A DNA stretch of 64,000 bases from Escherichia coli (GCF_017348835.2 NZ_CP071375.1), one strand, 5' to 3'. Shown: positions 48,118 to 53,207, numbered from the stretch's first letter. The notes: generated from the sequence alone by a model not told the origin. A program made the numbers and translations.

Positions 48118-48312
48118 TTTTGGGTCCTTCTCTGGTGTTGTTTGGGAAGTGTAGAGCATGGCAGGGCGGGGTGCCTGGAGTGTGACAAAGGTTACATATC
48201 GCTGAGTGTAATGCTGAAAATTTCAGCACTTAGCGAGGTGGGTGCAAGCTGGCGCTTGCATGGTGGCGTGCGACAGGTATAATCCACAACGTTTTCCGCA
48301 TACCTCTTCAGT

Positions 48313-48397
48313 GCCGAAGTGGCGAAATCGGTAGACGCAGTTGATTCAAAATCAACCGTAGAAATACGTGCCGGTTCGAGTCCGGCCTTCGGCACCA
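48313..48397 (+). tRNA. leuX: tRNA-Leu (anticodon CAA)
   Basis: 85-nt sequence gccgaagtggcgaaatcggtagacgcagttgattcaaaatcaaccgtagaaatacgtgccggttcgagtccggccttcggcacca, with the CAA anticodon in the loop and an encoded CCA end. Confidence 0.95.
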
Positions 48398-48930
48398 AGT
48401 TACTAAATTCCTTACAATACAGTTAGTTAGACGATTAAATCTGTCTCTTTTGCCTGTAAGAAATGCTCTGTTATGTCCCTTGAAAAAGCCGCTGTGGTTG
48501 ATAGTGGTAATTGGGATGTTAACTCATAGCGGCGTGTCGTTCCAAGCGTCAAACACGTACTGACTCAACTTGAAAGCTATGACGTAGCCACCGTCTCTAA
48601 ACAATCCCAAAACTTTTAGTGCAGCGCATTTTAGCCCGATGCCCCCATTCTGTCGCCGTCGCGAGACGCCGCAGGGGATAAACAGGTTTATGGTGGTCAC
48701 GGTACTTGCAGACCATATGCAAGCTCTGCCAGCGGTTCGGCCTCGCTCCCCTTGGGTACATGGTCATCCTGATAAGCCTCACTAACTGACATAACCCTGA
48801 TGAAGTCGCAAGAGGCTCCGCTTGTTGTCTTACCACCAACGGGGCTTTATGGATTCTATTGCTTAATATATGATTGTATCAAACTTAGACTGCATAATTT
48901 AAACGAACATAACAATCAGGCAGGGGAAGA

Positions 48931-49755
48931 ATGATAAAGCCATTTTCTGTGAGGTATGGTCATGTTGACGTTAGAGAGCATGTCCAGCTGAATGATCTTA
49001 ATTCTGATACACGCATAGCATTGTGGAATTGCTTATATCTTTTCCTTTGGACTAACAATCGTCAAACTGCTACAGCAACAAAATGTGCGCAGTCTGTGTG
49101 GATATATTATCTAAATCAACCTGCGGATAATATTCCTCGTTATGAAAGTGGATACAAAAGTGATAAGACGTTGCTGACTGCTATCCGAGATTATATATAT
49201 GGGGAAGCATGGTATTTGGTATATGATTTAATTGAGTTCATCATTGAGAGAACTAATTCATATATTAATCTATCGAAGCATCTCAATTCCATCTTTAAAA
49301 AGCATGGCGTTGGTTATACCATAATAAATGGTTGTATTACTCCTATTTCAAATGATAACGAAATTGAAAGTGTTCAGAACGCAGTTGATAATGGCACTGA
49401 TTCATCGCGTAGCCATTTCGAAAGGGCGTTACAACTAATGACGGATAGAGAGCAGCCAGACTACAGAAACTCGATTAAAGAGTCTATCTCTGCAATTGAA
49501 TCTTTATGCAGGAAAATCACGGGCAATGATAAAGGAACCTTGGGGGCTTGTCTTAAAGCTATAGAGGAAAAAGGATATATACACTCTGCAATGAAAGGCG
49601 CTTTTAGTCAGCTCTATGGTTATACAAGTGATCAGGGTGGAATACGTCATGCGCTAACAGAAGAAGATGTAAATCCTACCTTAGCTGAAGCTAAATTTAT
49701 GTTAGTCACTTGCAGTGCGTTCAGTAATTATCTGTTGTCAAAAATAAGTGATTAA
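48931..49755 (+). CDS. Hypothetical protein, 274 aa, AT-rich, no motif recognised by eye
   Basis: Long uninterrupted ORF with a good Shine-Dalgarno (aggggaag) before the ATG; codon usage and base composition atypical of the flanking core genes; about 530 bp downstream of leuX. Confidence 0.6.
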   Translation: MIKPFSVRYGHVDVREHVQLNDLNSDTRIALWNCLYLFLWTNNRQTATATKCAQSVWIYYLNQPADNIPRYESGYKSDKTLLTAIRDYIYGEAWYLVYDLIEFIIERTNSYINLSKHLNSIFKKHGVGYTIINGCITPISNDNEIESVQNAVDNGTDSSRSHFERALQLMTDREQPDYRNSIKESISAIESLCRKITGNDKGTLGACLKAIEEKGYIHSAMKGAFSQLYGYTSDQGGIRHALTEEDVNPTLAEAKFMLVTCSAFSNYLLSKISD

Positions 49756-49773
49756 TTACAGGTTTATAGTTAC

Positions 49774-49794
49774 GAGTGGGTTAGTTACCCACTC
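49774..49794. terminator. Perfect 8-bp stem hairpin between the two convergent islet ORFs (possible bidirectional terminator)
   Basis: gagtgggt-tagtt-acccactc lies in the 48-bp gap between the two stop codons; flanking U runs are weak. Confidence 0.4.
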
Positions 49795-49803
49795 CCTTTA
49801 AAA

Positions 49804-50376
49804 TTATTCACCAGACTCTAATCTTTTTTCTCTTTTCTCATCTCTCCTTTTTATTGCCAAATCGTGTTGCTCTTGCAGATACGTGCGTTCTTCGTTTCTA
49901 TCGCTTGAAGTATATACGTCTGCTTTTACTTTTTTAGCTCCTTGTGCAATAGGTTTCCAATCCTCTCTTATACCTTTAATTTGTTCTGCAATTTGCGTCA
50001 ATGGGCTTCTCGCTCCTAGATAACTTATTCCTTCAAATGTCGCCATGTCATACACATATTCATTTGTTTCTCTATCGTTTGATTTAGGTTTGCTTGCCCA
50101 GCTTATATTAATATTATAAATTTGATCTTTGATTTGTTCATACTTACAGAGATTGCTGGTAAGTGATTGCCCATTTTTTAACACGCTTACCTTACTAAAC
50201 GGAATCTCACTTTTTTCTCTATGCTCCGCATTTACTAGTGGAGGATCAAACACAACCTCAACATTATAGGCAGGTGCGTTCCCTGTATTAGCAATGTTAA
50301 TATCAAAGTAAAAAGCGGCCCAAGGGTTTGGCTCAAGTGTTACAACTATATGGGGTTGAGCTGATGCGTCAACCAT
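49804..50376 (-). CDS. Hypothetical protein, 190 aa from the first ATG (208 aa if the GTG at 50430 is used), charged and hydrophilic
   Basis: ORF convergent with 48931..49755. The GTG-extended N terminus runs into the IS911 terminal sequence, so the ATG at 50374-50376 is preferred. No motif recognised. Confidence 0.5.
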   Translation of the reverse strand: MVDASAQPHIVVTLEPNPWAAFYFDINIANTGNAPAYNVEVVFDPPLVNAEHREKSEIPFSKVSVLKNGQSLTSNLCKYEQIKDQIYNINISWASKPKSNDRETNEYVYDMATFEGISYLGARSPLTQIAEQIKGIREDWKPIAQGAKKVKADVYTSSDRNEERTYLQEQHDLAIKRRDEKREKRLESGE

Positions 50377-50476
50377 TCTTTTTGTCTCGTCTGCTCTGAA
50401 GTGGTGAAGTGGTTTACTGAATTTGGCCACCTGAACAGAGGTGATATGCTCACCTCAGAACAACACAGGTGCTCCA

Positions 50477-50739
50477 ATGAAAAAAAGAAATTTTAGCGCA
50501 GAGTTTAAACGCGAATCCGCTCAACTGGTTGTTGACCAGACATACACGGTGGCAGATGCCGCCAAAGCTATGGATGTTGGCCTTTCCACAATGACAAGAT
50601 GGGTCAAACAACTGCGTGATGAGCGTCAGGGCAAAACACCAAAAGCCTCTCCGATAACACCAGAACAAATCGAAATACGTAAGCTGAGGAAAAAGCTACA
50701 ACGCATTGAAATGGAGAATGAAATATTAAAAAAGGCTAC
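50477..50739 (+). pseudogene. insN: IS911 orfA (InsN), truncated by the IS30 insertion after about codon 87
   Basis: Translation follows IS911 OrfA up to …EILKKAT, then runs into the IS30 terminal repeat at 50740. Confidence 0.8.
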
Positions 50740-51960
50740 TGTAGATTCAATCTGTCAATGCAACACCCCTTTCAATTATCTCTTTCGGTGTTTTGAACTT
50801 CAGTGTCTTTCTCGGTCTGTTGTTTAGCTGAGCAGCAACCAGATCTAGTTCATGTTGAGTATATTGGGCAAGACATGTCTTTTTAGGAAAGTACTGCCGA
50901 ATTAGCCCATTTGTGTTCTCATTTGTTCCCCGCTGCCAAGGACTCTGAGGATCGCAGAAGTAAACTTTAACGCCGGTGCTGACAGTAAATTCTAGATGTC
51001 TGGCCAGTTCCATTCCTCTGTCCCATGTCAGTGATTTTCTGAGTTCTGACGGTAAACTCAGGAATTTGTCGGTAAGAGCCTGATTTACTGAGACAGAATC
51101 TTTGCCCCTGAGTCTAAGGATGATCGTATAACGTGATTTTCGGTCTACAAGTGTGGCTATATGAGAGTTTTTTGTACCTGAGACTAAATCGCCCTCCCAA
51201 TGCCCCAGAGAGCGTCTGTTATCGATATTTCGGGAACGTTCGTGAATTGGTGTTCCGTTCACTATGTTAATCGTACCTCTTTCGCCTTTGCGGGTATGAC
51301 GCCTGCCATGGCGAAGGCTATGCGACCGTCGCAGATGCTGTATATTCAGGTGGTGTAGCGCTTCACGGCTACGAAAGTACAGCGTTTTATAAATTGTCTC
51401 AGGTGATATTCGCAGCGTTTTTTGACGTGGTTTTGTTCGCCTTAACCATCCTGATATTTGCTCTGGAGACCATTTCATCTCCAGCTTTTCCAGAACAAGC
51501 TTTCGCAATGGTAAATTTTGATCCAGTAAGCACGGTTTTGGCCTTTTCGCCATTCTGTTGGCTCGGTTATTAGCATCAACAGCTTTGTAATAGCGTCTGC
51601 CCCGATTACGCTGAACTTCACGTGAGATCGTCGAAGGACTGCGATTCAGCGCAGTAGCTATCGCACGAATGCTCATTTTGGCTGACAAACCAGCTCGTAT
51701 CTCCTCGCGCTCAGACAGTGTCAGGTGAGCTACAGCCCGCTTATGCTCATGGGGTTTTATGCCGCCAGTATCCCTTAACATAGTGAAGATCGTTCCGGGT
51801 TTTGAACCCAGGATATTCGCTATTTCACTGAAGCCTGTTCCGTTCTTCCATAGTTCAAAAACAGAGGCTTTTTCCTCTGCTGTAAATGTTCGTCTCATTC
51901 AAAAAACCTCCGCAACCCCATGTTTTCACATAACTGTTGCGTTGACCAATTGAATCTACA
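50740..51960 (-). mobile_element. IS30, complete 1221-bp copy inserted into IS911 orfA with a 2-bp target duplication (AC)
   Basis: Terminal inverted repeats tgtagattcaat… at 50740 and …attgaatctaca at 51960; AC at 50738-50739 and 51961-51962; the IS911 sequence resumes at 51963. Confidence 0.9.
50747..51898 (-). CDS. insI: IS30 transposase (InsI), 383 aa
   Basis: [41 protein letters not shown]… matches the IS30 transposase. Confidence 0.9.
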
Positions 51961-52028
51961 ACCGCGCTCTTGATGTCAGACTCCCTGAACAGTTCTCGAT
52001 AATCAGGAAACTCAGAGCGCATTATCCT

Positions 52029-52867
<839 letters not shown>

Positions 52868-52871
52868 CCAC

Positions 52872-53207
52872 AACAGACTACCTGAAGGGAGCCGCGGTCG
52901 CCTAGCAGTTGCAGTAGCAGGAGATCATCCAGCCGCAGTACAGGTCACGATGACTCTGGTTAATGATACCGGCTTTGACCCCGTATTTTCCGGCTCTATC
53001 GCTGAATCATGGCGTCAGCAGCCGTGCACACCATCCTATTGTTGTGACTGGGAGGCTGCCACCATGCTTCGCGCTTTCCCTCTGGCGAAAAAGGGAGAAG
53101 GACGGGCCCGTCTGCCTTCACTTTATGCCAGCTTCGGTAAGCTGGGTGAGACACCGACTCATAAAGATATCATTGATAACAATCGATCCATCAACTGGCC
53201 TGTATAA
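52872..53207 (+). other. Uncharacterised ORF fragment (possibly yjhV-like) between IS911 and fecE
   Basis: The open frame continues out of the IS911 terminus; no start context or function assignable. Confidence 0.3.

Follow-up and report, generated by a model that had tools for sequence, protein, structure and literature searches.

The segment that follows the tRNA gene leuX in the E. coli chromosome studied here (a stretch of 64,000 nucleotides, to which we refer as the window) is best, and in our estimate quite probably, explained as the stump of an island in which ORF-A has been retained as an intact, single-gene candidate defence protein, next to a beheaded ORF-B. On the basis of sequence comparison, positions 48367-50395 represent the leuX-proximal end of an integrase-bearing island of ~15 kb, which is phage-satellite-like as far as its gene content indicates. 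The two genes are independent items of cargo. What looks like a tidy 'two-gene orphan islet' can in this way be the remainder of a larger element. A first-pass annotation of the same DNA had described the pair as uncharacterised, which is right in the experimental sense and wrong with respect to the catalogues, since both proteins already have a name in RefSeq, Pfam and PADLOC; current concepts are left unchanged.

Anatomy of the leuX-proximal segment

The tRNA-Leu(CAA) gene leuX is located at 48313-48397 on the plus strand (ARAGORN; 59 bits with the Rfam tRNA model), and its last 31 nt (48367-48397) constitute the att core of the island. The 533 bp that follow are devoid of a long ORF and comprise a conserved, non-coding island end (48398-48861, no strand, delimited by DNA homology to other islands) and a cargo-specific leader of ORF-A (48862-48930, plus strand), with a Shine-Dalgarno-like GGGGAAG ahead of the ATG. 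ORF-A (48931-49755, plus strand) is intact and encodes 274 aa. The convergent ORF-B on the minus strand is open from 49804 to 50430 (208 aa from a GTG); RefSeq has the start at an ATG at 50376, yielding 190 aa. The gap of 48 bp between the two holds a hairpin with a perfect 8-bp stem and a 5-nt loop (49774-49794, arms GAGTGGGT and ACCCACTC). Beyond ORF-B lies a junction (50396-50404) in which 8 bp of the IS911 tip are found a second time (TGAAGTGG, 50397-50404), as apparent from alignment to the left end of K-12 IS911B, and then the IS911 element itself (IS3 family, 50405-52875, plus strand), which is split by an IS30 at 50740-51960. The extent of both elements follows from the IS911B alignment and the IS30 inverted repeats; IS911 right-end sequence was recovered at 52852-52875 and the RefSeq annotation of strain S88 also supports IS911.

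The tRNA, the spacer, the two convergent AT-rich ORFs, the hairpin and the IS911 end are all found where the first-pass annotation had put them, and the right boundary that it proposed was corroborated by the K-12 IS911B alignment, which begins at window position 50405. The same holds for the notion of foreign cargo at the leuX integration site. The GC content is 0.35-0.39 over 48800-50400, as compared to 0.52-0.57 in the core genes yjgR and ahr.

The intergenic hairpin is likely a terminator, though it lacks a U-tract, which is why it was not called in a terminator scan. Its stem is kept in the related loci of Enterobacter roggenkampii (L007) and a metagenome contig (L006), where loop and flanks have changed, and its minimum free energy is -13.9 kcal/mol. 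In the combined promoter/terminator scan sites were no more frequent than in shuffled sequence, and nothing convincing was located 5' of ORF-A or of the truncated ORF-B.

The parent island and its truncation

DNA homology to the E. roggenkampii locus spans 48226-50395 with an identity of 90% and breaks off at the IS junction, 10 bp short of the IS911 end. In that organism, which has the island intact, leuX is followed by the spacer, ORF-A and ORF-B at full length, and these in turn by a serine recombinase, a DEAD-box helicase and small genes. A complete relative of ~15 kb is present in E. coli E2348/69 (L047), with leuX at one end and, by a tyrosine integrase at the other, 31 bp that repeat the leuX 3' end exactly (L047 5647-5677); its genes include a homologue of a major head protein (phrog_267, E 3e-64), an HNH protein, endonuclease VII, a helicase, a recombinase, full-length ORF-B (WP_000569068.1) and the integrase. 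The order in intact islands is: att, the conserved end of ~460 bp, a variable cargo slot, the serine recombinase, the DEAD-box helicase, small genes, the major-head homologue, HNH and endonuclease VII, the tyrosine integrase and att. As the leuX 3' repeat occurs only once in the window and an integrase is missing from it, the segment is a remnant and not an island. The earlier description as integrase-less was accurate for the window, the orphan status was not: in intact copies the integrase resides at the far end, and it is missing here because of the IS911-associated loss of the other ~13 kb. That event removed everything beyond codon 39 of ORF-B. The IS911::IS30 composite is either the agent or the site of the truncation, and the IS911::IS30-yjhV-fec block to the right of the islet is the same composite as found in KpLE2 of K-12 (IS911B::IS30D by yjhV-fec).

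The position occupied by ORF-A carries a different gene of 182 aa in E2348/69 and a PDC-M04A-like gene together with a 190-aa gene in Kosakonia; other small defence-like genes are found in further hosts, and AbiEii lies nearby. ORF-B is itself variable cargo, as the match fails to reach it in many of the E. coli copies. Affiliation of the parent island with P4-like elements or cfPICIs was considered and found unsupported, as neither a P4 alpha-type primase nor a portal or terminase was encountered.

The spacer had been regarded as anonymous and free of ORFs. The latter is correct; the former is not, because 48398-48861 is a strongly conserved part of a mobile island, being 94-95% identical to the sequences in Kosakonia and E2348/69. 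Between 48450 and 48850 the identity among E. coli, Enterobacter, Kosakonia and the metagenome contig even reaches ~99%, although the genes on its flanks diverge by 10-26%. Islands with different cargo (L009 and L047) remain homologous up to 48861-48872, and from there on homology is confined to the ORF-A-bearing islands of E. roggenkampii and the metagenome contig. Given its 1-nt indels the spacer is not coding, and since no more than 629 of 5426 E. coli genomes have it, it is accessory, which rules out that it represents core E. coli DNA. Several other identities were rejected: an RNA gene (Rfam recovered just the tRNA in this region, and the folding z-scores were +0.6 and +0.8), a phage cos-like site (no phage DNA match) and a region with repeated arm sites (only short repeats at chance level). 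Because the spacer abuts the att core, our guess would be that it serves as an attP arm or as a recombination anchor for cargo exchange.

ORF-B, a truncated cargo gene

ORF-B matches phrog_11802 (E 7e-86) and has 131 relatives in the database, typically of 225-235 aa, several of which are labelled 'lysogenic conversion protein from bacteriophage P2-EC53'; the RefSeq label in S88 is DUF8453. Searches of NCBIfam, PADLOC and Pfam with ORF-B yielded no match. In P2-EC53 and phage R18C the homologue is the sole gene in the Z/fun slot, between the tail-fibre and sheath genes.

All full-length relatives start with a hydrophobic helix (...STFISAFAALLTAVATFFLWRVT...) that is absent from the aligned window copy. 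In tblastn searches with three of them the alignment begins at their residue 39, corresponding to window position 50394, and the DNA homology to the E. roggenkampii and metagenome loci ends at 50395. The missing 38 N-terminal residues, which include the hydrophobic helix (Kyte-Doolittle peak of 1.92 at residues 12-30), were not found by tblastn anywhere in the 64-kb window, including the part beyond IS911. ORF-B is, judging from these alignments, a 5'-truncated copy that comprises codons 39-234 of a gene of ~230 aa (49804-50395, minus strand) and has lost its transmembrane helix, start codon and promoter. The frame of 208 aa described in the first-pass annotation is indeed open, although its first ~12 codons consist of IS911 tip and junction and homology to the family stops at 50394/50395. 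The first-pass annotation had itself counted such a finding, a piece of a longer gene that related strains possess, as a refutation of its reading, and for ORF-B this is the case. The 190-aa product is not marked as a pseudogene by PGAP, which illustrates that a gene fragment can pass annotation pipelines as a normal protein.

A structure model of the full-length protein (pLDDT 89.6) consists of a helix (residues 2-49), a seven-stranded beta-sandwich (54-154) and two C-terminal helices, and the intact gene is predicted to encode a membrane protein with one transmembrane segment and an Ig-like beta-sandwich. The DUF8453 architecture of transmembrane helix, beta-sandwich and C-terminal helices is incomplete in the window copy which, devoid of anchor and promoter, is probably inert. 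Fold searches recovered just generic Ig-like sandwiches or uncharacterised relatives, and sequence-profile searches against solved structures with the families of both ORF-A and ORF-B returned nothing meaningful.

ORF-A, a protein of the AbiJ_NTD4-HEPN type

According to the first-pass annotation neither protein contained a motif that could be recognised by eye. Domains did emerge from profile searches and structure prediction, which identified ORF-A as an AbiJ_NTD4/HEPN protein and led for ORF-B to phrog_11802 and the generic folds mentioned above. ORF-A is recovered by two PADLOC models of the single-gene candidate system PDC-S32, namely PDLC04997 (E 6.4e-104, residues 3-272 on profile positions 8-281 of 285) and PDLC04996 (E 1.5e-86). 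Residues 4-153 (48940-49389) match the Pfam family AbiJ_NTD4 (PF18863; E 3e-26, model positions 2-151 of 152), the same domain was detected in 37 of the 37 relatives tested, and the identical protein in RefSeq is named 'AbiJ-NTD4 domain-containing protein'. The family has over 4400 members (4436 database matches). Since the aligned ones all measure 271-303 aa, ORF-A is full length. Comparison with the orthologues of Enterobacter and the metagenome contig gave a dN/dS of 0.09-0.11.

The C-terminal domain (about residues 155-274, 49393-49752) has the four-helix fold of HEPN domains according to structure prediction, in a model with a mean pLDDT of only 79.8 in which the loop with R239-H240 is least confident. 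Apart from one weak match to DUF4145 (E 0.023), a Pfam search with residues 154-274 and with the 37 relatives returned no family at E<=0.1, and thereby no HEPN or Abi_C (PF14355) model; a precomputed PF14355 label is attached to two database relatives. The canonical Rx4-6H motif is absent, in that R.{4,6}H is not conserved within the C-terminal halves of the 37 relatives. [quoted passage not shown] The paper that defined the superfamily placed the HEPN catalytic motif in the helix-3/helix-4 loop and reported that in AbiV and the AF0298-type HEPNs the classical histidine is missing and one located further upstream takes its place (PMC3710099). In ORF-A, R239-H240, H218 and E184/E190 may replace Rx4-6H as a non-canonical active site.

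Proposed function and distribution

Most likely, to judge from its domains, ORF-A is a single-protein abortive-infection sensor/RNase. Anantharaman et al. 2013 predicted AbiJ-NTD proteins to combine a phage sensor with an RNA-cleaving HEPN domain (PMC3710099). By such a mechanism the AbiJ_NTD4 domain would sense a phage component and hold the C-terminal HEPN domain inactive until infection lifts the inhibition, upon which the freed HEPN domain would cut RNA, translation would stop and the infection would be aborted. Both this mechanism and any anti-phage activity of ORF-A are to be read as predictions. The candidate systems (PDCs) of PADLOC are mostly unvalidated (PMC12988326), a 2026 review has no mechanistic information even for the lactococcal AbiJ (PMC13064643), and our literature searches on PDC-S32, DUF8453 and P2-EC53 returned no papers. 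Phage-defence or abortive-infection cargo, as had been suggested for the pair, is supported as a prediction for one of the two genes, ORF-A (AbiJ_NTD4, HEPN fold and PDC-S32 membership).

Of 5426 complete E. coli genomes, 466 have the identical segment of 2.15 kb at leuX. It runs into an IS3-family end in every case, and beyond that end the sequence differs between strains. The carriers of the identical ORF-A (~9% of the complete genomes) include E. coli C, S88, Nissle 1917, ATCC 25922 and the type strain. These comprise standard phage hosts and probiotic or reference strains. E. coli C has the identical ORF-A gene and is yet a famously permissive phage host, so that protection, if there is any, has to be restricted in range or dependent on conditions. 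A bolder proposal is that ORF-A is an active one-protein Abi system with a non-canonical HEPN site (R-H dyad plus upstream histidine) that went unnoticed in E. coli C, Nissle 1917, ATCC 25922 and the type strain, and that the conserved 400-bp sequence is a functional cis element in a family of satellites, as yet unclassified, that bear a capsid gene and have a slot for defence cargo at leuX. We put this forward tentatively, inclining to doubt it in its full form.

Two other explanations for ORF-A are both, and equally, improbable. ORF-A could serve the island itself, as a HEPN addiction/stabilisation toxin or by interfering with the helper phage. In favour of this, the gene is located in the cargo slot of an island that resembles a satellite and, in Pectobacterium, within a prophage tail cluster, and HEPN domains are frequent toxins of toxin-antitoxin systems (PMC3710099). 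However, no antitoxin gene adjoins ORF-A, the gene persists in a dead stump that cannot be lost by excision, and PADLOC lists the family as a defence candidate. Such service to the island overlaps with the main explanation and does not exclude it. Just as improbably, both genes could be inert relics, with ORF-A still intact only because the truncation was recent and one inherited copy is seen 466 times. The near-identity of the islet in these genomes (one amino-acid variant) leaves little signal of selection within E. coli, the remainder of the island is gone, and E. coli C is broadly permissive to phages. Relic status does not sit well with a between-species dN/dS of ~0.1 and the retention of every invariant residue, nor with the fact that ORF-A is undisrupted in strains as different as the five named above, which have different downstream rearrangements.

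ORF-A and ORF-B are not one unit

The first-pass annotation considered the ORFs a two-gene module and asked whether the pair travels together at other loci. In the species scanned it does not. The neighbourhood of ORF-B was scanned within 6 kb in one genome per species (39 loci), and an ORF-A-family gene was encountered at 1 of the 39, which proved to be a contaminating E. coli contig; the loci of the other species all lacked it (38 of 38). Conversely, ORF-A relatives occur without ORF-B: the one in Klebsiella adjoins an integrase, that in Pectobacterium lies within a P2-like baseplate cluster, and that in Xanthomonas has a DUF4365 gene as its neighbour. The dS values between window and Enterobacter are also far apart (0.235, or 0.24 when rounded, for ORF-A and 1.155, or 1.16, for ORF-B), and this five-fold difference implies a recombination breakpoint between the genes. 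That the two would nevertheless form one functional system, for instance a HEPN effector in the cytosol whose partner or regulator is anchored in the membrane, is very improbable: the same convergent pair with the same conserved hairpin is indeed shared by E. coli, E. roggenkampii and the metagenome contig, but these three loci reflect one ancestral arrangement (81-90% DNA identity throughout) and not independent associations, the ORF-A family is far bigger (4436 matches versus 131), and ORF-A is intact in all 466 genomes though ORF-B lost its anchor.

Comparison with known systems

The closest relatives of ORF-A are the PDC-S32 or AbiJ_NTD4 (PF18863)-HEPN proteins. ORF-A shares its architecture and size with more than 4000 of them and is in no way distinct from this family, for which function is a prediction and Rx4-6H is absent. 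The lactococcal AbiJ and AbiV and the AF0298-type HEPN (PDB 2hsb) are also among the closest known systems. ORF-A has no detectable similarity to the PADLOC models of AbiJ and AbiV or to Pfam Abi_C, and its N-terminal domain is a different one; AbiV acts together with an RNA antitoxin (PMC13064643), and none is evident at ORF-A. ORF-B resembles ORF1 of P2-EC53, a 'putative lysogenic conversion protein' in the Z/fun moron slot, with which it is 70-71% identical over the common part and shares the PHROG and the predicted fold; in contrast to ORF1, the window copy lacks residues 1-38 and is joined to an IS911 end.

At the level of the element, variable hotspots of defence genes in P4/P2 prophages and satellites and in the cargo of PICIs are said to have been described by Rousset et al. 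and Fillol-Salom et al. in 2022. The parent island is alike in being integrated at a tRNA gene and in having a capsid gene and a slot with varied small defence-like genes. It agrees with none of the P4-like gene sets against which it was compared, and differs in carrying a DEAD-box helicase in place of the P4 alpha-type primase and a major-head homologue of its own.

The leuX island and its cargo slot

The complete parent element of the leuX-proximal stump is a leuX island of ~15 kb, represented by loci in E. coli E2348/69 (L047, 5647-20792) and in Enterobacter roggenkampii (L007). The genes of the parent element include those for an integrase, an endonuclease VII, an HNH protein, a major-head-protein homologue, a scaffold-like product, a DEAD-box helicase and a serine recombinase; neither a portal nor a terminase gene was seen among the island genes of these two loci. 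Judged by its gene content, the parent island looks like a phage satellite of unclassified type.

The island slot that holds ORF-A (the AbiJ_NTD4/HEPN-fold gene) is a variable, defence-enriched cargo slot, filled by other small genes in other hosts. In Kosakonia (locus L009, 6628-8052) it contains a PDC-M04A-like gene and a gene of 190 aa, and in E2348/69 a 182-aa hypothetical (L047, 19642-20190). On a metagenome contig (L006, 8-958) AbiEii lies just outside a leuX-like repeat. A relative of ORF-A with 41% identity was found in a P2-like prophage of Pectobacterium brasiliense (L051, 6001-6855), where it is a moron inserted between the baseplate genes gpV and gpW.

The helicase of the islands (L007, 3856-5700; L009, 1658-3673) matches the PADLOC HMM PDLC02858, labelled DpdF, with E=0 and over the full model. 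The model may have been derived from these very helicases, and could be a source of false DpdF calls.

The conserved stretch next to leuX

The non-coding stretch at 48450-48850 of the window is ~99% identical across E. coli, Enterobacter, Kosakonia and the metagenome contig, the flanking genes being far less conserved. It carries 1-nt indels, and yielded no Rfam match, no RNA-structure signal and no match to phage DNA. The conserved end that contains it directly adjoins the att core, a position that makes an attP arm or a recombination anchor a possible role for the stretch. A contig labelled as a Collinsella sp. metagenome-assembled genome (JAIJJM010000048.1) matches the leuX islet of E. coli at 100% identity and almost certainly represents E. 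coli contamination of that assembly.

The junction with IS911

Where the ORF-B remnant meets the insertion sequence, the IS911 tip TGAAGTGG is present in two tandem copies (50397-50412), followed by TTT in the window versus CAC in IS911B of K-12. Positions 50405-53000 comprise the IS30-split IS911, then a yjhV-like fragment and then fec. KpLE2 of K-12 has this very composite, as IS911B::IS30D-yjhV-fecE, so the island stump is linked to KpLE2-type DNA via IS911.
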